A stretch of DNA of 64,000 nucleotides. It comes from Escherichia phage vB_EcoM_NBG2. Below the pieces are notes generated by a model. That model had not been told where the DNA came from, made no database searches, and saw nothing but the letters and a program-made list of their open reading frames with translations. Position numbers and translations under genes: made by a program. Shown in pieces: positions 32,992 to 47,500 of this stretch (position 1 is its first letter; each line of letters starts with the position of its first letter). Where the stretch lies: sequence record NC_054925.1. The stretch is one strand, 5' to 3'.

Positions 32992-34170
32992 TTAAAAGTA
33001 TTTTTTAAAACTCATCATAACTTTATCATCAACATCATTATCAATCTGTGCTACAAGGTAAGATGACAGTTCTACTTCTTGCGGCGCGGATTGAACATTA
33101 TCAGAATTAAGGTATTCACGAATCCAAGGATATGGATGTTTAACCGGAGCATCGGTAATTGGGCATGGAAGACCACACTGTTTCATACGAGATACAGTTA
33201 AGTAATCAATAAAGCTCCACATGCTATTTGTATTTAATCCAGGAACATCGCCATCTTTAAATAAATGAACTGCCCAATCTTTTTCTTGGCGGTTAACTTC
33301 CATGAAAATATCAACTGCTTCTTGTTCACACTCTTGAGCAATTTTAACCCATTCATCGCCATCAGTGCCAAGTTGAAGTTGACGAATAATATATTGAGTG
33401 CCTTTAAGGTGAAGCTGCTCATCACGTGCAATAAACTTCATAATCTTGGCATTACCTTCCATGATTTCCATGTTCTTATGGAAGTTAAAGGTACATGCAA
33501 AAGATACATAAAAACGAATAGCTTCTAAGGCATTAATAACGTGTAAACAGAGGTAAAGAGACTTCATTAAAGCACGTTTAGCTTCGGCCTCTTGTTTAAT
33601 AGCTCGGTTTAAACGAAAGTCGGCATCAGGAGATTCTTTAGCTAGTTCTACAAATTCTTTAGCATTTTCCCATTCACGGGTTTTAATCAGAACATCATCA
33701 TAATAGCGACCGATAGATTCAGCACGTTTCATGATAGCTTCATCTAATACAATCTCATCAAATACCTTTGATGGGTCAGTATAAAGATTTCGCATGATAT
33801 GAGTATATGAACGGCTGTGAATAGTTTCACTAAAAGTCCATGTAGCAACCCATGTATCAAGGCTTGGGTCTGAAATTAATGACATAAGTACAGCAGACGG
33901 CGCACGACCCTGAATGCTATCCAAAAGTGATTGATACTTCAGGTTGTTAGTAAAAATATTTTGCTGATACTGAGGAAGCTTATTAAACTGCGCAGCATCC
34001 ATCATTAAGTTTACTTCTTCAGGACGCCAGAAAAATGACAACTGCTTTTCGGTTAAATCTTCAAAAACTTTATGACGTTGAATATCATAACGCGCAATAC
34101 CAAGACCTGAACCGAAGAACATAGGTTCTTTTAAAACATCAACTGGATTTGTATTAAAAACTGTGCTCAT
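32992..34170 (-). CDS. nrdB: ribonucleotide reductase small subunit, uninterrupted
   Basis: 392-aa continuous ORF; di-iron motifs present; no intron. Confidence 0.93.
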   Translation of the reverse strand: MSTVFNTNPVDVLKEPMFFGSGLGIARYDIQRHKVFEDLTEKQLSFFWRPEEVNLMMDAAQFNKLPQYQQNIFTNNLKYQSLLDSIQGRAPSAVLMSLISDPSLDTWVATWTFSETIHSRSYTHIMRNLYTDPSKVFDEIVLDEAIMKRAESIGRYYDDVLIKTREWENAKEFVELAKESPDADFRLNRAIKQEAEAKRALMKSLYLCLHVINALEAIRFYVSFACTFNFHKNMEIMEGNAKIMKFIARDEQLHLKGTQYIIRQLQLGTDGDEWVKIAQECEQEAVDIFMEVNRQEKDWAVHLFKDGDVPGLNTNSMWSFIDYLTVSRMKQCGLPCPITDAPVKHPYPWIREYLNSDNVQSAPQEVELSSYLVAQIDNDVDDKVMMSFKKYF

Positions 34171-34221
34171 AAATTTTCCGCTTAGTTAATAGATAGTGAC
34201 TCGTCCGTGAGTCAAATTATA

Positions 34222-36486
34222 TCATAATTTACAGGATGAACAATCTTCAGCTTTTGGAGTTTCTATTTCATAATCATCAGTACCGGAACCATCACGGGTA
34301 TTATGATAATAGAAATTTTTTCCGCCAAAATACCAAAAGTACAAAAGGTCATCAATCATTATTGACATTGGAACCTTTCCTTTTGGAAAAATCTGCGGGT
34401 CATAATATGTATTCGCTGAAGCTGATTGACACACCCATTTCAGCATAATAGCTACCTGCGTAAGATAAGGTTTATTACCTTTCTTAGCTAATTTCCACGT
34501 ATAATCATATAGGTCTATGTTATGCTCAATATTGGGCACGACTTGATTAAAGGAACCCTCTTTTGATTCTTTAACAGAGACTGGTCCACGTGGAGGCTCG
34601 ATACCGTTTGTACTGTTAGAAACTTGGGAAGATGACTCACATGGCATAAGTGCTGATAATGTGCTATTACGGATGCCAAAGAGCTTAAGGTCTTCCCGCA
34701 GCGCCGACCAGTCACAAACGTATTTTGGAGCTGCGATTTGGTCAATCTTTTTATTGTACCAGTCGATAGGTAATTCGCCTCGAGACCAACGAGTGTCTGA
34801 ATAATATTCGCAAGGTCCTTTTTCTTTGGCGAGCTTAATGGATGCTTTAATGAGTCCATACTGTAATCTCTCAAATAGTTCATGTGTTAAATCGTTAGCA
34901 TCTTCATAAGAAGCAAAGTTACTTGCCAGCCAAGCTGCATAGTTGGTAACACCTACGCCAAGATTACGACGCTTTTTAGCTTTTTCTGCTTCAGGAACTG
35001 GATATCCTTGGTAATCCAAAAGATTATCAAGAGCGCGAACTTGAACTTCTGCTAATTCATTAATTTTATCTTGGTCTTGCCAATCGAAGTTATCCAACAC
35101 AAATGCAGATAACGTACACAATCCAATTTCAGCATCAGGACTATTCACATCATTTGTTGGAATAGCAATTTCACAACACAAGTTACTCTGGCGAATAGGT
35201 GCCTTTTCACGAATAAACGGAGTATAGTTATTCGTATTATCAATGAACTGCACATAAATCCTTGCTGTTCCTGAGCGTTCAGTCATGAGCAATTCAAATA
35301 GTTCACGGGCTTTAATACGCTTTTTACGAATATTAGGATCTTTTTCTGCTGCTTCGTATAATTCACGGAAACGGTCTTGGTCTTTAAAATAAGAATAATA
35401 AAGTTCGCCACCCATTTCATGTGGACTAAACAAAGTAATGTAATCGTTCTTTCCAAAACGTTCCATCATCAAATCATTCAGCTGGACACCATAATCCATA
35501 TGACGGATACGGTTTTCTTCTACGCCTTTGTTATTTTTCAAAACGAGAAGATTTTCAACTTCCAAATGCCAAATAGGATAATAAGCAGTAGCAGCGCCGC
35601 CACGAATTCCGCCCTGTGAACATGATTTAACAGCAGTCTGAACATGTTTCCAAAAAGGAATAACACCAGTATGACGCACTTCACCTGTGCCAATCTTAGA
35701 ACCTTCGGCACGAATCATACCAACGTTAATGCCGATTCCAGCTCGCTTGGAGATATATTCAACAATTGAAGCAGAAGCTTTGTTGATAGACTTCAGCGAA
35801 TCACCTGCCTCAATAACAACGCATGAACTAAACTGTCGAGTTGGAGTACGACATCCAGCCATAATAGGAGTTGGCAGTGAAATCTGTCGAGTAGATACTG
35901 CTTCATAAAAACGAATAACATGTTTTAATCTGTCAACAGGTTCATCTTGATGCAATGCCATTCCAATAGTCATAAATGCAAACTGCGGAGTTTCATAAAT
36001 TTGACCAGTGGTTTTATCTTTAACGAGATATTTTTCTTTTAATTGCATCGCTCCGGAATAAGTAAATTCCATATCCCGCTCGTGCTTAATTTTTGATTCT
36101 AAAAATGTAATTTCTTCTGCAGAATATTTTGACAACAATTCAGGGTCGTATTTACCTTCATTTACACAGTAAGAAATATGGTCAATAAATGAACGTGGTT
36201 CATACTGCCCATAAACATGCTTACGAAGAGCAAACATTAAACAGCGTGCAGCTACATATTGATAATCAGGTTCTTCAACCGAAATAGAATTCGCAGCAGC
36301 CTTAATGACAATAGTCTGAATATCATCAGTTGTCATTCCATCACGGAGATAAGATTTAATATTTTCATATAATTCATAAGGATCTACTGATGTTCCCTCA
36401 GCTGCCCAAGATAAAACTTTAATAATTTTTTGTGGGTCAAAGCTCTGAGAAACACCACTACTTTTGATAACATTAATTAATTGCAT
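34222..36486 (-). CDS. nrdA: ribonucleotide reductase large subunit
   Basis: 754 aa; N-terminal ATP-cone then RNR barrel. Confidence 0.96.
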   Translation of the reverse strand: MQLINVIKSSGVSQSFDPQKIIKVLSWAAEGTSVDPYELYENIKSYLRDGMTTDDIQTIVIKAAANSISVEEPDYQYVAARCLMFALRKHVYGQYEPRSFIDHISYCVNEGKYDPELLSKYSAEEITFLESKIKHERDMEFTYSGAMQLKEKYLVKDKTTGQIYETPQFAFMTIGMALHQDEPVDRLKHVIRFYEAVSTRQISLPTPIMAGCRTPTRQFSSCVVIEAGDSLKSINKASASIVEYISKRAGIGINVGMIRAEGSKIGTGEVRHTGVIPFWKHVQTAVKSCSQGGIRGGAATAYYPIWHLEVENLLVLKNNKGVEENRIRHMDYGVQLNDLMMERFGKNDYITLFSPHEMGGELYYSYFKDQDRFRELYEAAEKDPNIRKKRIKARELFELLMTERSGTARIYVQFIDNTNNYTPFIREKAPIRQSNLCCEIAIPTNDVNSPDAEIGLCTLSAFVLDNFDWQDQDKINELAEVQVRALDNLLDYQGYPVPEAEKAKKRRNLGVGVTNYAAWLASNFASYEDANDLTHELFERLQYGLIKASIKLAKEKGPCEYYSDTRWSRGELPIDWYNKKIDQIAAPKYVCDWSALREDLKLFGIRNSTLSALMPCESSSQVSNSTNGIEPPRGPVSVKESKEGSFNQVVPNIEHNIDLYDYTWKLAKKGNKPYLTQVAIMLKWVCQSASANTYYDPQIFPKGKVPMSIMIDDLLYFWYFGGKNFYYHNTRDGSGTDDYEIETPKAEDCSSCKL

Positions 36487-36803
36487 AAGTCCTCAACTTG
36501 AAAATCGTCTTTAAACAATCGGTTAACTATATGAGCTATTATATCACCATGACACGGCTTTGGTTTACATGTGCATCCTAGCCTCATTCCACGTAAAGGC
36601 TCTAAATGTGCTTTAGTTATTTCTCCGGATTTAATTCGACGTATAAAATCTTTTTTGAATAATTCAATGGCAGCCTCCCGGCTGCCAGCATCTTTACCGA
36701 CGTAATTTCCCCAAAATGTACCACGGTGAATATTAACATCAAAGTCGGATTTGTATTTATTCACTACCCGGCATAGACGGCCCGCGCGGTTGTAGGTGTT
36801 CAT
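36477..36803 (-). CDS. hypothetical protein (nrdA.1 position)
   Basis: 108-aa Cys/His-containing ORF. Confidence 0.5.
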
Positions 36804-37032
36804 ATTGTTCTTCCGTTAAAACAGTAATATCGTAGTAACAGTCAGAAGAAGTTTTAACTGTAGAAATTTTATTATCAAAATACTCACGAGTCATTTTATG
36901 AGTATAATATTTTTTGCCATAAATGATAATAGGCTGATTTGGTCCTGGAACTTCTAACTCACTTGGATTAGGAAGTGTAAAAAGAACTACACCAGAAGTA
37001 TCTTTAAATCGTAAAATCATATATCCTCGCAA
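36757..37032 (-). CDS. hypothetical protein (nrdA.2 position)
   Basis: 91-aa ORF overlapping the next ORF by 47 nt. Confidence 0.45.
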
Positions 37033-37043
37033 TTAAATTAAAA

Positions 37044-37355
37044 TTACACCGCCATCTTTCCTTTAATAGGAGGGTGTGATTCATAGTTGTTAAGAACAAA
37101 ATTATGCGGCTTTGCGAATTGACTCAACCAAAATACCTGCGATTCTGTGTCCCATTCATCAAATTCATCTGGAAATTTTAATTGCAATTCGCATAAATCC
37201 ATAGGTTCACGACGCAAAATTTCTTTACATTGTTCTACGTGATTCATATAGATATGAGTATTACCACCGGAAAATATCAAATCTCCCGGAATAAGATTAC
37301 ACATCTTAGCTACAATATGAACTAACGTAGCATATGATGCAATGTTGAATGGAAG
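37044..37355 (-). CDS. td: thymidylate synthase, exon 2
   Basis: Encodes [19 protein letters not shown]...IKGKMAV; joins exon 1 after intron removal to give a 286-aa protein. Confidence 0.9.
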
Positions 37356-38371
37356 CATTATGTTCAGATAAGGTCGTTAATCTTACCCCGGAATTATATC
37401 CAGCTGCATGTCACCATGCAGATCAGACTATATCTCCAACTTGTTAAAGCAAGTTGTCTATCGTTTCGAGTCACTTGACCCTACTCCCCAAAGGGATAGT
37501 CGTTAGGCATTTATGTAGAACCAATTCCATTTATCAGATTTTACACGATAAGTAACTAATCCAGACGAAATTTTAAAATGTCTAGCTGCATCTGCTGCAC
37601 AATCAAAAATAACCCCATCACATGAAATCTTTTTAATATTACTAGGCTTTTTACCTTTCATCTTTTCTGATATTTTAGATTTAGTTATGTCTGAATGCTT
37701 ATGATTAAAGAATGAATTATTTTCACCTGAACGATTTCTGCATTTACTACAAGTATAAGCAGAAGTTTGTATGCGAACACCGCACTTACAAAACTTATGG
37801 GTTTCTGGATTCCAACGCCCGTTTTTACTTCCGGGTTTACTGTAAAGAGCTTTCCGACCATCAGGTCCAAGTTTAAGCATCTTAGCTTTAACAGTTTCAG
37901 AACGTTTCTTAATAATTTCTTCTTTTAATGGATGCGTAGAACATGTATCACCAAACGTTGCATCAGCAATATTGTATCCATTAATTTTAGAATTAAGCTC
38001 TTTAATCCAAAAATTTTCTCGTTCAATAATCAAATCTTTCTCATATGGAATTTCTTCCAAAATAGAACATTCAAACACATTACCATGTTTGTTAAAAGAC
38101 CTCTGAAGTTTTATAGAAGAATGGCATCCTTTTTCTAAATCTTTAAAATGCCTCTTCCATCTCTTTTCAAAATCTTTAGCACTTCCTACATATACTTTAT
38201 TGTTTAAAGTATTTTTAATCTGATAAATTCCGCTTTTCATAAATACCTCTTTAAATATAGAAGTATTTATTAAAGGGCAGTCCTACAATTTAGCACGGGA
38301 TTGTCTACTAGAGAGGTTCCCCGTTTAGATAGATTACAAGTATAAGTCACCTTATACTCAGGCCTCAATTA
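37356..38371 (-). mobile_element. group I self-splicing intron in td (1016 nt) carrying I-TevI
   Basis: Exon 1 ends ...TTGGGT; intron starts TAATTGAGGCCTGAGTATAAGGTGAC and ends ...CTGAACATAATG. Confidence 0.9.
37503..38240 (-). CDS. I-TevI: intron-encoded GIY-YIG homing endonuclease I-TevI
   Basis: 245 aa; N-terminal GIY-YIG (SGIYQIKNTLNNKVYVGSAKDFEKR), Cys-rich zinc finger, C-terminal DNA-binding region. Confidence 0.92.
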   Translation of the reverse strand: MKSGIYQIKNTLNNKVYVGSAKDFEKRWKRHFKDLEKGCHSSIKLQRSFNKHGNVFECSILEEIPYEKDLIIERENFWIKELNSKINGYNIADATFGDTCSTHPLKEEIIKKRSETVKAKMLKLGPDGRKALYSKPGSKNGRWNPETHKFCKCGVRIQTSAYTCSKCRNRSGENNSFFNHKHSDITKSKISEKMKGKKPSNIKKISCDGVIFDCAADAARHFKISSGLVTYRVKSDKWNWFYINA

Positions 38372-38920
38372 ACCCAAGAAAACATCTACTGATCGTTGAT
38401 ACCACTGCAAATCCAAATAGCCATTACGCACATTAAATTGATAGAACATATGACAAGGCGGTAATGCCATATATTTAAGTTCAGCTGGATTCCATGCAGA
38501 AACAATTTGACGCCTATCATTTGGCAGTTTTTTAATACGATCAATAACTTCTATAATTTGGTCTACACCGCCAAAATCACGCCACTGTTTTCCATAAATT
38601 GGACCAAGTTCACCGCTATGGTATCCTAAATCTTTTGCTTGATTTTCGTAATTTTCATCCCAGACTGTTTTGCCTTGAATTAATGAATCATGCTGAATTA
38701 ATCGTAAATCATTTACGTTAGTGCTTCCTGATAAAAACCAAAGCAGCTCAGCAATGCAAGCTTTCCAGGCGAGCTTCTTAGTTGTTACTGCAGGAAAACC
38801 TTTAGTTAAATCCCAGCGTAATTTAGTACCGAACAAAGCAATTGTTCCTGTGCCTGTTCGGTCATCGGTTTCGTAGCCATTTTCAAAAATGTCTTTAATT
38901 AAATCTTGGTATTGTTTCAT
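38372..38920 (-). CDS. td: thymidylate synthase, exon 1
   Basis: 183 aa, MKQYQDLIKDIFENGYETDDRTGTGT...; ends ...QRSVDVFLG at the 5' splice site. Confidence 0.92.
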
Positions 38921-38965
38921 TTAGTACCTTATATAAATTATAATACATTTTATGAAGCTAAATAA

Positions 38966-39325
38966 TCAATACGGTTTAGCATCAAATTTTCTCTCAATTT
39001 CAGGTGTGAAATATAATTCTTTACCACGTTTGGAAAAGCGACCAATAATATGATAATTATTCTCATCAAACGTGATATTACCAATATCCATAGCTTTCAA
39101 CCAAATATCGATATTTCTATCCAGCTTTATGTCAAAATTCCAATACGGAGAACTATTACCAAAAATACTACAAGCGGATTCAGTGAAACAACTGCTATAA
39201 ATCTTGTCTTTAGGAACTACTAATTGATAGACACCTTTAATAAACTGAGGACCTTGCCACTTTGGCTGTTTCGCGTCTTCTTCTAATAGAATAGGGTAAT
39301 AATTAAAATTCATATTTTCCGCCAC
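38966..39325 (-). CDS. hypothetical protein inserted between frd and td
   Basis: 119-aa ORF with a GTG start (internal ATG at codon 5); no recognisable motif. Confidence 0.5.
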   Translation of the reverse strand: MAENMNFNYYPILLEEDAKQPKWQGPQFIKGVYQLVVPKDKIYSSCFTESACSIFGNSSPYWNFDIKLDRNIDIWLKAMDIGNITFDENNYHIIGRFSKRGKELYFTPEIERKFDAKPY

Positions 39326-39333
39326 GCGTTATT

Positions 39334-40160
<827 letters not shown>

Positions 40161-40170
40161 ATTATTTTCC

Positions 40171-40413
40171 TTAAACAGACTTTTTCACAATTTTCCAATC
40201 AGCTTTAAACTGCTCGACGTCAGAATGGTAAATCCAGAATCCTGCGCTTTCTCCGTCTTCATAAAGAGGACATCCATCGCATTCATCTTCCCATCCCATG
40301 TCACGTAAAAGATGTTCAGCTTTTTCAACAAGTTCAGAATCTTTACCGATGATATTAAAATACCATTTACCTCTAACTTCTGAATCTTTGATGCTCTGGC
40401 GTTGTAATCTCAT
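40171..40413 (-). CDS. hypothetical protein (frd.2 position)
   Basis: 80-aa ORF preceded by an early promoter. Confidence 0.5.
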   Translation of the reverse strand: MRLQRQSIKDSEVRGKWYFNIIGKDSELVEKAEHLLRDMGWEDECDGCPLYEDGESAGFWIYHSDVEQFKADWKIVKKSV

Positions 40414-40435
40414 TTTATTCTCCTTAGTTGATAGG

Positions 40436-40490
40436 GTAATAGTATCACACTACTACCCTGTTGTAAACTACTTTTTGAAAGTTTTTCGCA
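40436..40490 (-). promoter_or_regulatory. early-type promoter with A/T-rich UP element
   Basis: Minus strand aaaaactttcaaaaagta-GTTTACA-N16-TGATACTAT. Confidence 0.45.
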
Positions 40491-40854
40491 AAAGTTCAAT
40501 GATTTCATCTACATTATTTTCGTCAACAATGCAGTGAATTTTTGTTACGCCATAAACCTTGTCTTTGACTTCATCTTCTTCAAAAGTTGGTTCTTTATAC
40601 TCGCGAAAACAATAAAACTCTTCTTCACTAAGTTCAAAATAATCATCACCCATACCATCATCATTATAGATTTCACCATTGGCGCAAATGATTTCGGTTA
40701 CATAATCAAATCCATCTAAACTTGATATTGATTTAACTTCAAACCAACCGCCATTTTCTTGAATGATGCCGACCATACTAGCATTTGATGAACTAATATC
40801 AATGAAAGATTTAATACGGTGTGGATTTAACTCATATTTTTTGCCGATTTCCAT
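40468..40854 (-). CDS. hypothetical protein (frd.3 region)
   Basis: 128-aa acidic ORF. Confidence 0.5.
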   Translation of the reverse strand: MEIGKKYELNPHRIKSFIDISSSNASMVGIIQENGGWFEVKSISSLDGFDYVTEIICANGEIYNDDGMGDDYFELSEEEFYCFREYKEPTFEEDEVKDKVYGVTKIHCIVDENNVDEIIELLRKTFKK

Positions 40855-40900
40855 TTTTGATTTTCCTCATTTTAATAGGGGCTTGATAGCCCCTTGATAA

Positions 40901-41128
40901 TTATTGTTCAATCAATCCCATGTAAAATTCTGCGTCTTCAGAATCCATGCCATCACAATATTCATTAGCCATAAAGAGGGTGAGGTCTTCAAGAGGACCT
41001 TTAATAACGATTTGAATACTCCAAAACTTAGAATCTTGCACGCTTGTGATACTAAGTTCAGGATAACGATTACGAATAGTCTCTTCAATATATTCAAAAT
41101 CAACGATGTCAATATCAACTTTAGCCAT
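40901..41128 (-). CDS. hypothetical protein (start moved to internal Met)
   Basis: Track ORF starts at 41191, upstream of the predicted promoter; AAAGAGGA precedes the Met of MAKVDIDIV... Confidence 0.45.
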
Positions 41129-41167
41129 ATTATTTTCCTCTTTAATCATCAGCAGTATTGCCGATAG

Positions 41168-41225
41168 TTGTATAGTACCATGGAAGGACAAGGATGTAAA
41201 CGGCTTTGTGAAAAAATTTTTGAAA
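41168..41225 (-). promoter_or_regulatory. early-type promoter
   Basis: Minus strand GTTTACA-N14-TGGTACTATACAAC; same extended motif as at 58282 and 61926. Confidence 0.45.
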
Positions 41226-41251
41226 TAAAAAAGGGGACCTCTAGGGTCCCC
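41225..41251 (-). terminator. rho-independent terminator of gene 32
   Basis: ggggacc-ctaga-ggtcccc hairpin followed by UUUUUU, 20 nt downstream of the gene 32 stop. Confidence 0.7.
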
Positions 41252-41273
41252 AATTAATTAGTAATATAATCTG

Positions 41274-42182
41274 TTAAAGGTCATTCAAAAGGTCATCCAG
41301 GTCCGTGTCATCAGCACTAGATGAACTGCCAGAGCTTGAGCTCATAAAATCATCTTCAGTTTTTGTTTTGAAGTCATCAACATTGAATGCATCCAAATCA
41401 TCAGCAACTTTATCAGCTTTCTTAGCGGCAGTTGCTGCGGCACCACCCATAGCAGCAGTTCCCATAACTTGACTGAACTTAGTGCTCAGTTCTTCAAACG
41501 ATTTGAATTTATCTTTAGAAGTCATTTCAGAAAGGTCAACCATTTGTTCGAACAGTTCTTTCTGGAAAGATTCATCGTCAATGTTTGGAATCGCAGATTG
41601 ATTCAGGAATTTAGATTCATCGTAGTTACTAAAACCAGAAACTTGTTTAACTTTCAGTACAAAGTTAGCACCTTCCCACGGACAAGTTACATCAACCGGA
41701 GTTTCACCCATTTCAACATCAACCGCAATCATTGCATTGATTTTATCCCAGATTTTCTTACCGAAACGGTATTTAAATACTTTACCTTCGTTTTCTGGAG
41801 CAGCTGGGTCTTTTACAACAAGAATGTTAGCCCAGTAAGAAGTTTTACGTTTAACAAGACTGTACTCTTTATTGTCAGTGTTGTACAGATCATTTTTACT
41901 GATGTACTGACATACTGGGCAAGAATCGTAATCACCGTGGGTAGATGAACAGTTTTCAATATACCATTTACCATTTTTCTTGAAACCGTGATTTACAAGA
42001 ATTGCGAATGGTGCCTGTTCATCATTTTTAGACGGAAGAAAACGAATTACTGCTTGACCGTTACCCGCATTGTCGAGTTTCAGTTTCCACTCGCCTTTAT
42101 CTTCAGAAGAAAAACCACCTTTATTTCCAGCCAGTTTAGCCATTTGTGCAGCGAGTTCAGCAGTAGATTTACGTTTAAACAT
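41274..42182 (-). CDS. 32: single-stranded DNA-binding protein gp32
   Basis: 302 aa, [48 protein letters not shown]...; acidic Ser/Asp-rich C-terminus. Confidence 0.97.
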
Positions 42183-42211
42183 TTTTATTTCCTTTTTAAT
42201 TTAATTAACAG

Positions 42212-42248
42212 TTGGTGCTATGACGATGTATGACCTCATAGCTGGTCA
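42212..42248 (-). promoter_or_regulatory. gene 32 translational operator (5'-leader pseudoknot)
   Basis: Minus strand reads CACTGACCAGCTATGAGGTCATACATCGTCATAGCACC, matching the T4 gene 32 autoregulatory pseudoknot as I recall it. Confidence 0.7.
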
Positions 42249-42263
42249 GTGAGATAATTATAA

Positions 42264-42271
42264 TCTATTTA
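42264..42271 (-). promoter_or_regulatory. late promoter TATAAATA upstream of gene 32
   Basis: TATAAATA on minus strand about 85 nt upstream of the gene 32 ATG. Confidence 0.5.
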
Positions 42272-42281
42272 TAATAAGCAA

Positions 42282-42935
42282 TTAATACTTACAAGATTTC
42301 ACAGTTTCAATGAAAACATTTTTAGCTTTCTGTGAATCAATATTTAAAATTTTTCTATAAGCCTTTAACTTTATAGAATAATTATTCCAGACTAAATTAT
42401 CAGTCTGTTCATCATGTTTATCAATTATATTTAAAAACGAATCAAGCAAGATAAACGTCTCAAACGAAATTATATTCGATTGAAGTAGTTTAAAAATATA
42501 ACTTGATTGAACTTTTGGATTATATTCAAAAATTTCTTTAAAAGCAGAAACTTCAACTTTTTTACTAAAATAATAAATGTTGCGAATATCTTCTTCAAAC
42601 TTAAACTTAATTTGCTTTAAGCGTCCGATATATTCACGATAAAACACAAGTGCATCAGCGTCAGAGATGTCACCAATCCAAGCATCTTGGTTAGCAACCA
42701 GATTGCTTATAAAAATTAAAGCAAGTTCCTTTAATTTATATTTTTCTGATAGCTTTTGGAAAAAATACTTATCCCTTCGCTTTTGATAAGCGGCATCAGA
42801 CACCCGCATGCACCAATTATACTTAATAACATCATACTTTCCATTCATATGTTGTTTTATCATTAAGTATAATTTATAAACTGATTTACCATCAATGTAT
42901 CTTTCACCACCAGCAGGCATGCGGAGTTTAATCAT
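42282..42935 (-). CDS. 59: helicase loader gp59
   Basis: 217 aa, MIKLRMPAGGERYIDGKSVYKLYLMIKQH... Confidence 0.93.
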   Translation of the reverse strand: MIKLRMPAGGERYIDGKSVYKLYLMIKQHMNGKYDVIKYNWCMRVSDAAYQKRRDKYFFQKLSEKYKLKELALIFISNLVANQDAWIGDISDADALVFYREYIGRLKQIKFKFEEDIRNIYYFSKKVEVSAFKEIFEYNPKVQSSYIFKLLQSNIISFETFILLDSFLNIIDKHDEQTDNLVWNNYSIKLKAYRKILNIDSQKAKNVFIETVKSCKY

Positions 42936-43270
42936 AGTAGAAAATCTAATGTATTAGTTTTTTCACAACGAACAACAGAAGGACGTAAAAGATTTTCGTC
43001 GATAGCTTCTGATTGAATTTTTTCAATTATACCAGAAGGAATAAATTTAGCAAATTGAGTTTCAGGAATAGAGTTTTCTTCCAAGAATGCTGTCGTAGCT
43101 TCAAGATAACTCATTCCAAACTCTTCTACCATTTTTTCAATAATAAATCCATTTTCTTGACGATCAAGAAGCTTTGCTATTTCATCCTTTTCTTTCTTGA
43201 TTGAAAGTTCTTTTTCTGAAAGACCGGTCTCATCGACCGGACGAATATCATTTAGAGAAAACTGTGTCAT
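42932..43270 (-). CDS. 33: late transcription co-activator gp33
   Basis: 112 aa from MTQFSLNDIRPVD...; track ORF has a 3-aa upstream extension. Confidence 0.85.
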   Translation of the reverse strand: MTQFSLNDIRPVDETGLSEKELSIKKEKDEIAKLLDRQENGFIIEKMVEEFGMSYLEATTAFLEENSIPETQFAKFIPSGIIEKIQSEAIDENLLRPSVVRCEKTNTLDFLL

Positions 43271-43517
43271 AAAGTTCAACTACCTCTTCAGTTTCAGCTT
43301 CAAACACATCACGATTATCTTTATGATACAAAGCTAATAGACGATTAAACATCTTACCATCAACGCCAAGTTCATCTTTGGCACGAATTCGAATATCTTT
43401 AATCAGTTCATTATAACCGGAAATTTTCAGTTTATGATCAGATGCTTCTTTAATAAATTTAGCCAAGTCTTCGCCATGGATAGCTTCATCAAATTCAACC
43501 ATTTCTTTTTTAGCCAT
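43248..43517 (-). CDS. dsbA: dsDNA-binding protein DsbA
   Basis: 89 aa, MAKKEMVEFDEAIHGEDLAKFIKEASD... Confidence 0.85.
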   Translation of the reverse strand: MAKKEMVEFDEAIHGEDLAKFIKEASDHKLKISGYNELIKDIRIRAKDELGVDGKMFNRLLALYHKDNRDVFEAETEEVVELYDTVFSK

Positions 43518-43525
43518 TATTCACC

Positions 43526-44443
43526 TCAAAATTCATTAATGCTATTAGTTAATTTAGAAAGACCCGCTTTTACAAAATATGAATAAATTTTGCCACGCGG
43601 TGGTAATTTGTATGAATTATAGTAATTCACAATGTTTGAAGCAATATTATCAGGAATATAATCAAAATCAATTAGAACTAAATTTTCTTTATAACGATTA
43701 TATTCAGATTCTGTGAGAAGCACCTTAGCTTGCTCACGGTCATTAGCAATAGCTTCAACGATTGAAGTTTTCATTGAAGGAGTTCGTTCACCTTCAACTC
43801 TGGTAAACCAAAAGTCAGATCGTACTTTAACTGAAGCAACGTTATCCTTTTTGTCGCCTTTAAGGATTTTAGTCATACAGTCAATTTCAGCAGAACCGCT
43901 TTTAATTTTAACCCATTTCTTATGCATCGGTGACCATTGCTTAACATTTGGATATTTGTGAAGTTGAGTAAAGTCACCATCCGATGAAATGATCAAAATC
44001 TTATGTCCTTCTAAAGAGAACTTTTTAACAAGAACAGCAATATGGTCATCTGCTTCATACTTATCAATATCCATAACGATGTATGGCATATAAGCTTTTA
44101 ATTCATCTATAACTTTATGACTGGATTCAAAATAACCTTCCCAGTCCCAAGTAGATTCTTCTCGTGCTTTTCCACGGTTTTTCTTGTAATAATACGCGAA
44201 ATCACGACGCCAATATCCAGATTTCGCGTTATCAATACACAGTACAATTTTAGTGTATCCGAGCGTTTTTGCTTTTTTGACATTAAACTTAATTGAGTTC
44301 AATATCAAATGACGAACCATTGATAAATTAATTTTTTCTTTATCTGGGAAGTTTACCAAAGCAGTTGAAAGCGCAATTTGACTAAAGTCAATTAAGCAGA
44401 TTCCTTCTTTGTAATCTTCATCCAGCATCATTTCTAAATCCAT
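43526..44443 (-). CDS. rnh: RNase H (5'-3' exonuclease, FEN-like)
   Basis: 305 aa from MDLEMMLDEDYKEGICLIDFSQIALS... Confidence 0.92.
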   Translation of the reverse strand: MDLEMMLDEDYKEGICLIDFSQIALSTALVNFPDKEKINLSMVRHLILNSIKFNVKKAKTLGYTKIVLCIDNAKSGYWRRDFAYYYKKNRGKAREESTWDWEGYFESSHKVIDELKAYMPYIVMDIDKYEADDHIAVLVKKFSLEGHKILIISSDGDFTQLHKYPNVKQWSPMHKKWVKIKSGSAEIDCMTKILKGDKKDNVASVKVRSDFWFTRVEGERTPSMKTSIVEAIANDREQAKVLLTESEYNRYKENLVLIDFDYIPDNIASNIVNYYNSYKLPPRGKIYSYFVKAGLSKLTNSINEF

Positions 44444-44505
44444 ATGAACCTCGTTCAATTAGTGAGATTTCTATTATATACCATCCAAATCTTAAAGTAA
44501 ACAAG

Positions 44506-44513
44506 TATAAATA
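44506..44513 (+). promoter_or_regulatory. late promoter TATAAATA for gene 34
   Basis: TATAAATA 35 nt upstream of the gene 34 ATG. Confidence 0.6.
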
Positions 44514-44547
44514 CTTATTATTGAAAACACAATAGGAGCCCGGGAGA

Positions 44548-47500
44548 ATGGCCGAGATTAAAAGAAAGTTCAGAGCAGAAGATGGTCTGGACGCAGGTGG
44601 TGATAAAATAATCAACGTAGCTTTAGCTGATCGTACCGTAGGAACTGACGGTGTTAACGTTGATTACTTAATTCAAGAAAACACAGTTCAACAATATGAT
44701 CCAACTCGTGGATATTTAAAAGATTTTGTAATCATTTATGATAACCGCTTTTGGGCTGCTATAAATGATATTCCAAAACCAGCAGGAGCTTTTAATAGCG
44801 TACGCTGGAGAGCATTACGTACTGATGCAAACTGGACAACTGTTTCATCAGGACCTTATCAATTAAAATCGGGCGAATCAATTTCAGTTGATACTGCAGC
44901 TGGTAATGACATTACATTTACTTTACCATCTTCTCCAATTGACGGTGATACTATCGTTCTCCAAGATATTGGAGGAAAACCTGGAGTTAATCAAGTTTTA
45001 ATTACAGCTCCGGTACAAAGCATTGTAAATTTTAGAGGTCAGCAAGTACGTTCAGTACTAATGACTCATCCAAAATCACAGATAGTTTTAATTTTTAGTA
45101 ATCGTCTGTGGCAAATGTATGTTGCTGATTATAGCAGAGAAGCTGCAATTGTAACACCGGCAAGTCTTTATCAGGCGCAATCTAACGATTTTATCGTGCG
45201 TAGATTTACTTCCGCTGCGCCGATTAATATTAAACTTCCAAGATTTGCTAATCATGGCGATATTATTAATTTCGTTGATTTAGATAAATTAAATCCTCTT
45301 TATCACACAATTGTTACTACATATGATGAAACAACTTCAGTACAAGAAGTTGGAACTCATTCCATTGAAGGTCGTACATCGATTGACGGTTTCTTGATGT
45401 TTGATGATAATGAGAAATTGTGGAGATTGTTTGACGGGGATAGTAAAGCACGTTTACGCATTATAACGACTAATTCTAATATTCGTCCAAATGAAGAAGT
45501 TATGGTATTTGGTGCGAATAATGGAACAACCCAAACAATTGAACTTCAGCTTCCGACTGATATTTCTGTTGGTGATACTGTCAAAATTTCCATGAATTAC
45601 ATGAGAAAAGGACAAACAGTTAAAATCAAAGCTGCCGGTGAAGATAAAATTGCTTCTTCAGTTCAATTGCTGCAATTCCCAAAACGCTCAGAATATCCGC
45701 CTGAAGCTGAATGGGTTACAGTCCAAGAATTAGTTTTTAATGGTGAAACTAATTATGTTCCGGTTTTACAACTTGCTTATATAGAAGATTCTGACGGAAA
45801 ATACTGGGTAGTACAGCAAAACGTTCCAACTGTAGAAAGAGTAGATTCTTTAAATGATTCTACTAGAGCAAGATTAGGCGTAATTGCTTTAGCTACACAA
45901 GCTCAAGCTAACGTCGATTTAGAAAATTCTCCACAAAAAGAATTAGCAATTACTCCAGAAACGTTAGCTAATCGTACTGCTACAGAAACTCGTAGAGGTA
46001 TCGCAAGAATAGCAACTACTGCTCAAGTTAACCAGGATACTACATTCTCTTTTGCTGATGATATTATCATCACTCCTAAAAAGCTGAATGAAAGAACAGC
46101 TACTGAAACTCGCAGAGGTGTTGCTGAAATTGCTACACAGCAAGAAACTAATGCAGGAACCGATGATACTACAATCATCACTCCTAAAAAGCTTCAAGCT
46201 CGCCAAGGTTCTGAATCATTATCTGGTATTGTAACTTTTGTATCTACTGCAGGAGCTACTCCAGCTTCTAGCCGTGAATTAAATGGTACGAATGTTTATA
46301 ATAAAAACACTAATAATTTAGTTGTTTCACCTAAAGCTTTGGATCAGTATAAAGCTACTCCAACACAACAAGGTGCGGTAATTTTAGCAGTTGAAAGTGA
46401 AGTAATTGCTGGACAAAGTCAGGAAGGATGGGCAAATGCGGTTGTAACGCCAGAAACGTTACATAAAAAGACATCAACTGATGGAAGAATTGGTTTAATT
46501 GAAATTGCTACGCAAAGTGAAGTTAATACAGGAACTGATTATACTCGTGCAGTCACTCCTAAAACTTTAAATGACCGTAGAGCAACTGAAAGTTTAAGCG
46601 GTATAGCTGAAATTGCTACGCAGGTTGAATTCGACGCAGGCGTCGACGATACTCGTATCTCTACACCATTAAAAATTAAAACCAGATTTAATAGTACTGA
46701 TCGTACTTCTGTTGTTGCTCTATCTGGATTAGTTGAATCAGGAACTCTCTGGGACCATTATACCCTTAATATTCTTGAAGCAAATGAGACACAGCGTGGT
46801 ACACTTCGTGTAGCTACACAAGTCGAAGCTGCTGCAGGAACATTAGATAATGTTTTAATAACTCCTAAAAAGCTTTTAGGTACTAAATCTACTGAAGCAC
46901 AAGAAGGTGTTATTAAAGTTGCAACTCAGTCTGAAACTGTGACTGGAACATCAGCAAATACTGCTGTATCTCCAAAAAATTTAAAATGGATTGTGCAGAG
47001 TGAACCTACCTGGGCAGCTACTACTGCGATAAGGGGATTTGTTAAAACTTCATCTGGTTCAATTACGTTCGTTGGTAATGATACAGTTGGTTCAACACAG
47101 TCATTAGAATTGTACGAGAAAAATAGTTATGCAGTATCGCCATACGAATTAAACCGTGTATTAGCAAATTATTTGCCGTTAAAAGCAAAAGCTGTAGATA
47201 GTAATTTACTGGATGGTCTAGATTCATCTCAGTTCATTCGTAGGGATATTGCACAAACGGTTAATGGTTCACTAACCTTAACCCAACAAACGAATCTGAG
47301 TGCCCCTCTTGTATCATCTAGTACTGCTACGTTCGGTGGATCAGTTTCAGCAAATAGTACACTAACCATTTCTAATACTGGAACAGCAACTCGTCTGATT
47401 TTTGAGAAAGGACCTCAAACTGGAACGAACCCGGCTCAAACGATGACAGTCAAAGTGTGGGGAAATCAATTTAGTGGTGAATCAGACACAACGCGTTCTA

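Follow-up and report, generated by a model that had tools for sequence, protein, structure and literature searches.

A conserved small gene between frd and td of T4-like phages and its probable loss from the T4 lineage

In bacteriophage T4, the coding sequences of frd and td overlap by 4 nt (NC_000866), the stop codon of the first and the start codon of the second being merged in ATGA. This overlap was correctly stated in an earlier note on the DNA studied here, which took the T4 junction as the reference state and proposed that an extra open reading frame (ORF) had been inserted into it. The closest described counterparts of that ORF are T-even proteins of PHROG 1928 (T6 YP_010067382.1, RB32ORF229c, Shfl2p237 and phiD1 g240), which occupy the same slot, are of equal length and are 93 to 100% identical to its product; the protein of phage vB_Eco_ZCEC15 is 100% identical. 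There is no substantial difference between the product of the present ORF and these proteins, and it represents one more allele. No mention of the gene was found in the literature on the frd/td junction, on the locus names or on PHROG 1928, and the only experimental data for the family concern a homologue of a second type, g236 of phage phiR1-RT (PMC6893735). That gene stayed in the screened set after a filter that removed hypothetical proteins of the particle proteome, gave a relative colony count of 0.401, at the 0.4 cut-off, in an E. coli toxicity screen and was outside the four confirmed toxic proteins (PMC6893735).

The window, by which we mean the whole 64-kb stretch of Escherichia phage vB_EcoM_NBG2 that was analyzed, carries all of the genes concerned on the minus strand. 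The frd gene (dihydrofolate reductase, 193 amino acids; positions 39334 to 39915, with its TGA stop at 39336-39334) is approximately 96% identical at the DNA level to T4 frd, and this upstream neighbor also bears the name frd in the annotation of relatives. Exon 1 of td (thymidylate synthase; 38369 to 38920), assigned from the ORF list and the T4 annotation, begins with the ATG at 38920-38918 and is followed by the td intron with I-TevI (37503-38240) and by td exon 2 (37044-37358). Both the ORF list and the sequence place a gap of 413 bp (38921-39333) between frd and td, and this gap holds a single ORF at 38966-39325, with 119 codons if counted from a GTG and with an ATG as codon 5, so that the interval of about 410 bp and the same-strand 119-codon ORF reported in the earlier note were both borne out. 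Through td and its intron the window is collinear with T4 (95.5% DNA identity), and the wider region is approximately 95 to 96% identical and collinear apart from the missing segment; in a pairwise alignment T4 lacked exactly positions 38921-39333. The nearest phages found in the database searched over the 12 kb from 34000 to 46000, at approximately 96.5% identity, were SCS4, ECML-134, F25 and T6. A second ORF that is absent from T4 lies between frd.1 and frd (39915-40160, minus strand, 81 amino acids), its stop overlapping the frd start; it matches PHROG 3183 (unknown function; E value of 2.7e-41), and at this place T4 has approximately 21 bp and T6 two ORFs. A search of positions 36500-40500 against Rfam returned no RNA family at an E value of 0.1 or less, the td group I intron included, a silence likely due to the 738-bp I-TevI ORF, which interrupts the intron model.

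The ORF, hereafter gene A, is flanked by two short spacers. The spacer between frd and the ATG of gene A (20 nt, 39314-39333) includes the in-frame GTG (39325-39323) and, 4 nt upstream of the ATG, a GGCGGA that weakly resembles a Shine-Dalgarno sequence, while the spacer before td (45 nt, 38921-38965) has an AAGG Shine-Dalgarno sequence 6 nt before the td ATG; td of the window thus differs from T4 td in having a Shine-Dalgarno sequence and a 45-nt leader of its own. By consensus matching, a sigma-70-like sequence (TTGATT-18-TATTAT, 38969 to 38940) was found at the latter spacer, and the record of phage Lutter has a predicted promoter annotated at the corresponding place. A loose MotA-box-like match (GCTTCA-N12-TAATTT, 38958 to 38935), likewise a consensus match, was also present; the window contains 20 matches to this pattern versus 13.7 ± 3.8 expected, which is no enrichment, and a MotA-type middle promoter was set aside on that account. 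A signal scan detected no terminator-like site in 38921-39333.

Judged by substitution pattern and codon usage, gene A is a real protein-coding gene and not a chance ORF. Pairwise comparisons with T2, Lutter, F2, PTK and Shf125875 gave dN/dS values of 0.01 to 0.09 at dS values of up to approximately 1.0. A codon-usage log-odds score trained on 32 long ORFs of the window was +0.27 bits/codon for gene A (frd, 0.31; td, 0.36) and ranged from -0.5 to -1.5 in the other five frames; the GC content of gene A was 32.8%, against 35.8% for the whole window. The earlier note had pointed out that poor codon adaptation would indicate a noncoding spacer, and since gene A resembles frd and td in this respect, it does not look like one. 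The notion of a noncoding spacer or chance ORF draws on the weak Shine-Dalgarno sequence of gene A and on one T2 record (LC348380) in which the gene is left unannotated; its probability is close to negligible, as it is already refuted by the substitution pattern and is further opposed by the frame-specific codon usage, by syntenic orthologues conserved as protein down to 26% identity and by a confident fold prediction. In one record of the Pu-Krd-SF1/SF2 pair (PQ249395), the tblastn match to gene A is split in two pieces, and neither PQ249395 nor PQ249396 has a coding sequence annotated between frd and td, a pattern that suggests a frameshifted copy of gene A or a sequencing error.

Translation of gene A almost certainly starts at the ATG at 39313-39311, giving a coding sequence of 115 codons plus the stop (38966 to 39313), and the upstream GTG is an improbable start. 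Although the codon layout described in the earlier note, with a GTG followed by an ATG at codon 5, is indeed present, a 1-nt deletion between GTG and ATG in phage Lutter causes the GTG frame to run into a stop, and Mosigvirus relatives lack a GTG at the corresponding position; the stretch between GTG and ATG therefore appears to be noncoding. The 348-bp coding sequence starting from the ATG is the one annotated in T6, Lutter, F2 and Shf125875.

The predicted protein matched PHROG 1928 with an E value of 9.3e-36, residues 8 to 115 aligning with positions 2 to 125 of the 126-position profile, and a tblastn search of 50,697 phage records located gene A in 579 of them. At least 90% identity was found in 361 of these records, including T2, RB10, RB18, RB68, AR1 and phiD1, and these approximately 361 records belong to Tequatrovirus or Mosigvirus; the other 218, from other genera, were below 60% identity. 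Gene A directly follows frd in T2, T6 and RB6/10/14/18/68, and diverged orthologues of 26 to 43% identity occupy the same slot in eight further genera of the Tevenvirinae, so that syntenic orthologues of 26 to 95% identity span ten genera of the subfamily. It lies immediately downstream of frd in Kanagawavirus CIP9, Jiaodavirus JD18, Moonvirus Moon, Gelderlandvirus STML-198, Winklervirus CHI14, Kagamiyamavirus EcS1, Marfavirus R3_1 and Mosigvirus Shf125875, and in the genomes inspected the stop codon of frd and the start codon of gene A often overlap. The position between frd and td was observed in the window, in nine annotated genomes from other genera and in all 18 of the IMG/VR loci recovered. 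One of these 18 loci (L027, 2560-3001; UViG_2974736276) is the sole case with approximately 440 bp between frd and gene A, where there appears to be a further insertion. Gene A already has an annotation in hundreds of T4-like phage genomes and is an ordinary, known conserved hypothetical gene.

A HMMER search of 1.8 billion representative proteins yielded 23 clusters at an E value of 0.001 or less, 21 of them short proteins of 95 to 116 amino acids; the remaining two, the long matches P0021 and P0023, were rejected as repetitive false positives. As far as these searches reach, the family appears to be confined to T4-like phages, and HMM and hhalign searches revealed no second member within the window. 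In an alignment of 46 sequences, W23, G31, G95, K99 and G101 were invariant and L13, Q20, Y33, R96, F97 and F106 were at least 90% conserved; the protein of the window carries the conserved W23, G31, Y33 and G95-R96-F97-x-K99-x-G101.

The interval between frd and td holds other small genes in related phages. In many genera gene A is followed by a second ORF, gene B, of 113 to 124 amino acids, whose product is approximately 20 to 27% identical to that of gene A. The two are paralogues (hhalign probability, 99.4%; E value, 7e-22), and both match PHROG 1928. Like the product of gene A, the B-type proteins (phiR1-RT Gp236, CIP9 gp060 and Moon gp253) belong to this PHROG, share the predicted fold and the GRFxKxG motif of the C-terminal hairpin and are encoded in the frd-td interval; unlike it, they contain a conserved insertion of 19 to 21 residues, xPTIxxYKRNPxxY, after the invariant tryptophan. 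The third ORF, gene C, is unrelated to genes A and B and encodes a basic protein of 68 amino acids (PHROG 9550; pI of approximately 10). It was located at 749-955 in L009 (fHoEco02), at 3188-3394 in L002 and at 3148-3354 in L008, and in Kanagawavirus and Marfavirus the same ORF directly precedes td. Outside the T4-like phages, Phapecoctavirus has homologues of gene C with approximately 43% identity.

The order frd-A-(B)-(C)-td was kept in all 18 IMG/VR loci, and the full order frd-A-B-C-td was found in one metagenomic contig, in CIP9 and in R3_1. Gene A alone is present in the window, T2, T6, most RB phages, Mosigvirus and Jiaodavirus; gene B alone is present in Tegunavirus (phiR1-RT); and several other genera have A and B or all three. 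Within Tequatrovirus, where gene B is absent, three types of junction exist, namely, one with gene A only (approximately 361 records, some of them Mosigvirus), one with gene C only (approximately 135 records at 90% identity or more, e.g., fHoEco02 and ACG-C40, and some Dhakavirus) and the T4 type. These arrangements are consistent with an old set of small genes, frd, A, (B), (C) and td, of which different lineages would have retained different subsets.

The T4-type junction, which lacks genes A, B and C, was found only in T4 strains, T4T, RB55, RB59, vB_EcoM_112, HY03 and G28, an estimated 17 to 25 of 513 records. Because gene A occupies one slot across ten genera and the T4-type junction is confined to close kin, loss in the T4 lineage is the parsimonious reading; gene A would be ancestral in the Tevenvirinae, and its absence from T4 would be secondary. 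The ends of the missing segment are marked by a direct repeat of 12 nt, revealed by a repeat search, with copies that are identical at 11 of 12 positions and 417 bp apart. The first copy (39329 to 39340; plus strand, TTATTTCATTTA; coding strand, TAAATGAAATAA) spans the frd stop codon and the second (38912 to 38923; plus strand, TTGTTTCATTTA; coding strand, TAAATGAAACAA) the td start codon, while T4, in which the flanking frd and td are approximately 95 to 96% identical to those of the window, has a single copy and lacks the 417 bp between the copies, its stop and start overlapping at that very place. An 80-bp query of the T4 junction matched A-type phages in both halves with overlapping pieces, and the T4 flanks were 95 to 97% identical to those of A-type phages versus 92.6 to 94.6% for C-type phages. 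We infer that a 417-bp deletion between the repeats, TAAATGAAA(T/C)AA, took place in an A-type ancestor of T4 and brought the stop codon of frd and the start codon of td together, thereby producing the overlap. The repeat by itself does not prove deletion over insertion, because this DNA abounds in short AT-rich repeats: besides the 12-nt pair, three others of at least 9 nt lie within the same 551 bp.

The opposite direction of change had been proposed in the earlier note, in which gene A was a candidate recently acquired cargo gene next to the mobile td intron. If this proposal is followed through, the segment would have been inserted into an ancestral overlapping junction, possibly aided by the td intron or I-TevI, with the repeat as an insertion duplication. 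The segment is indeed missing in T4, gene A has no known domain, and the repeat TAAATGAAA(T/C)AA resembles a duplicated td start that would have left an ATG AAA TAA mini-ORF at the frd stop. Nevertheless, recent insertion is very improbable: it is largely refuted by the distribution of the gene, with ten Tevenvirinae genera sharing the slot at 26 to 95% identity; neither composition nor codon usage departs from that of the phage; Mosigvirus-type junctions, too, have the AAATGAAATA motif after frd; and T4-type junctions are rare and occur only in the close kin of T4. Nor did the supposed link to the mobile intron hold, since gene A and the intron vary independently: T2 and F2 carry gene A together with a td of 861 bp that lacks the intron, in T4 and fHoEco02 the intron is present and gene A absent, and the window and T6 have both. 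The features that would define a cargo or moron gene, i.e., patchy spread in close relatives, atypical composition and foreign origin, were not found in gene A. Comparison with T2, T6 and the RB phages showed gene A to be present in them and T4 to be the exception, and, the overlapping junction of T4 being rare and probably derived, the change would run opposite to that originally suggested. In our judgment, there is a probability of roughly 80% that gene A is an ordinary accessory gene that T4-like phages inherit vertically and that the T4 lineage has lost.

Two peculiarities of the frd end deserve mention. The mini-ORF ATG AAA TAA (39329-39337, minus strand) overlaps the frd stop and repeats the opening two codons of td (ATG AAA CAA), perhaps as a relic or as a signal for translational reinitiation. 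In the Mosigvirus-type junction (F2, PTK and Shf125875; loci L010 at 750-800, L013 and L014), the frd gene ends in TATAAAAATGAAATA versus TATAAATGAAATA in the window. Two additional A residues abolish the stop there, so that Frd gains 12 residues (205 amino acids in all) and frd overlaps the start of gene A by 11 nt.

Between the window and Mosigvirus, the identity was 95% for gene A, compared with 86% for frd and 89% for td, and some lateral exchange of gene A between genera is therefore indicated. An alternative history would extend such exchange to whole cassettes: the Tequatrovirus ancestor had other content between frd and td (for example, C only or A, B and C), and the A-only type then spread through both Tequatrovirus and Mosigvirus, carried by homologous recombination within the conserved flanking sequences of frd and td, gene A being old in the subfamily and shuffled laterally inside it. 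In keeping with this, the excess identity of gene A just described is joined by the presence of either gene A or gene C at one site in Tequatrovirus phages, with approximately 135 records having gene C, and by a contig (L011) on which the A product is 63% identical to the protein of the window and Frd 48%. We consider this history unlikely; moreover, it is compatible with vertical inheritance and loss in T4 as the main explanation and does not make gene A a recent foreign acquisition.

Structure prediction, which had been suggested for the protein, gave a confident AlphaFold2 model of the A product from the 46-sequence alignment (pLDDT of 90.6; pTM of 0.83), with strands at residues 10-16, 31-38 and 66-68, a helix at 72-80 and strands at 90-100 and 103-108. 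The model of a B product (P0028, 119 amino acids; pLDDT of 91.5) has the same order of elements, plus a short helix (residues 25-30) within the insertion that follows the invariant tryptophan. Foldseek returned nothing significant for the A product in the PDB (best E value of 0.19, with a TM score of 0.28), and matches in BFVD were found only among uncharacterized proteins of T4-like phages. The weak structural matches were mostly OB folds (HIN, Teb1, Cdc13, RPA14/32 and Stn1-Ten1), with some SH3/CheW-like barrels. In both confident models the order of strands and helix fits an OB fold, and the A product agrees with small OB-fold domains (RPA14/RPA32D, Stn1/Ten1, Teb1 and HIN) in the place of its predicted helix, which separates the third main strand from the final pair; no significant structural similarity of the A product to solved OB folds was detected. 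By sequence position, W23 falls in the loop after strand 1, G31 and Y33 in strand 2 and G95-R96-F97-x-K99-x-G101 in the hairpin of the last two strands. In OB folds, such loop, strand and hairpin regions usually form the binding face.

With respect to function, the A product had no match in Pfam, NCBIfam, PADLOC or PDB sequences, the last searched with the single sequence and with the 46-member profile, in agreement with the earlier remark that the ORF has no recognizable motif. Pfam and NCBIfam gave nothing for the protein of the window at an E value of 10 or less, and over the 46 family members each Pfam match at an E value of 1 or less was limited to a single member. Whether close T-even relatives carry the same ORF with a known function had also been raised: the ORF is present in them, but the PHROG 1928 proteins carry no assigned function and the stray labels on its members are unsupported (MZ501052, MZ501067, MZ501046, OR271596 and OR125554). 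One such label, "putative glucose-1-phosphate adenylyltransferase" in BW-1, is supported by none of the searches. Another, "putative homing endonuclease," appears in the BASEL phages AugustSocin, FriedrichZschokke and AdolfPortmann and in ValerieMcCarty04, and free-standing endonuclease genes are frequent between conserved T4 genes. That gene A encodes such an enzyme is nonetheless scarcely credible, given that no GIY-YIG, HNH, LAGLIDADG or other nuclease domain was found at an E value of 10 or less, that no nuclease family was common to the 46 members and that the significant matches of the fold searches included no nuclease. Furthermore, a protein of 115 amino acids is far below the length of full-length homing endonucleases annotated in T4 (245 amino acids for I-TevI), and the position of gene A is fixed and not mobile, with no second copy in the window.

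Since no catalytic domain or motif was detected, the A product may act by binding, and because T4 lives without it, gene A is dispensable. A possible scheme, held at low confidence, is that gene A belongs to the pre-replicative genes and shares a transcript with frd, td and nrdA and that its product would be a 115-amino-acid soluble protein, folded as a compact small beta-barrel with one helix and an OB-like order of elements, that binds a protein, a nucleic acid or a nucleotide and thereby modulates a process which benefits growth without being essential for it. Across PHROG 1928, isoelectric points extend from 5.2 to 9.6, a spread that speaks against a uniform nucleic acid binder. As a class, a noncatalytic binding protein made with the frd-td-nrd genes is a tentative assignment, less probable than not.

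A competing idea is that the A product is a counterdefense or host takeover factor that inhibits a host protein, such as a sensor or depleter of nucleotide pools, in which case the location in a nucleotide operon would reflect shared early timing only. The gene is small, phage restricted and dispensable and varies in copy number (A, B, A and B, or none), as is typical of accessory genes; it has no enzymatic motif; and the paralogues differ mainly by the insertion of 19 to 21 residues, which would fit different binding specificities. However, the tools used here detected no similarity to characterized antidefense proteins, the B-type homologue phiR1-RT g236 was not among the proteins confirmed as toxic to E. 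coli (PMC6893735), and the dN/dS values of 0.01 to 0.09 together with strict synteny suggest a housekeeping helper rather than an arms race gene; such a role is a minority possibility. More specifically, and more speculatively still, PHROG 1928 might be an undescribed small-barrel family that binds a component of nucleotide precursor synthesis or replication (dihydrofolate reductase, thymidylate synthase or gp32) or a host factor that targets nucleotide pools, a prediction that is improbable in this particular form. If it were true, the polymorphism of A, B or neither, including the loss in T4, would underlie host-dependent differences of T2, T4 and T6 in fitness or in sensitivity to defense.

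The practical value of these results is a correction. The overlapping frd/td junction of T4 is atypical for the subfamily, and a difference from T4 should therefore not be taken for an insertion. PHROG 1928 emerges as a strongly constrained family that appears to be limited to T4-like phages, is always located between frd and td and is without a significant match in the PDB, and T2 and T6, which have gene A, together with T4, which lacks it, constitute ready natural strain pairs for knockout and knock-in experiments.
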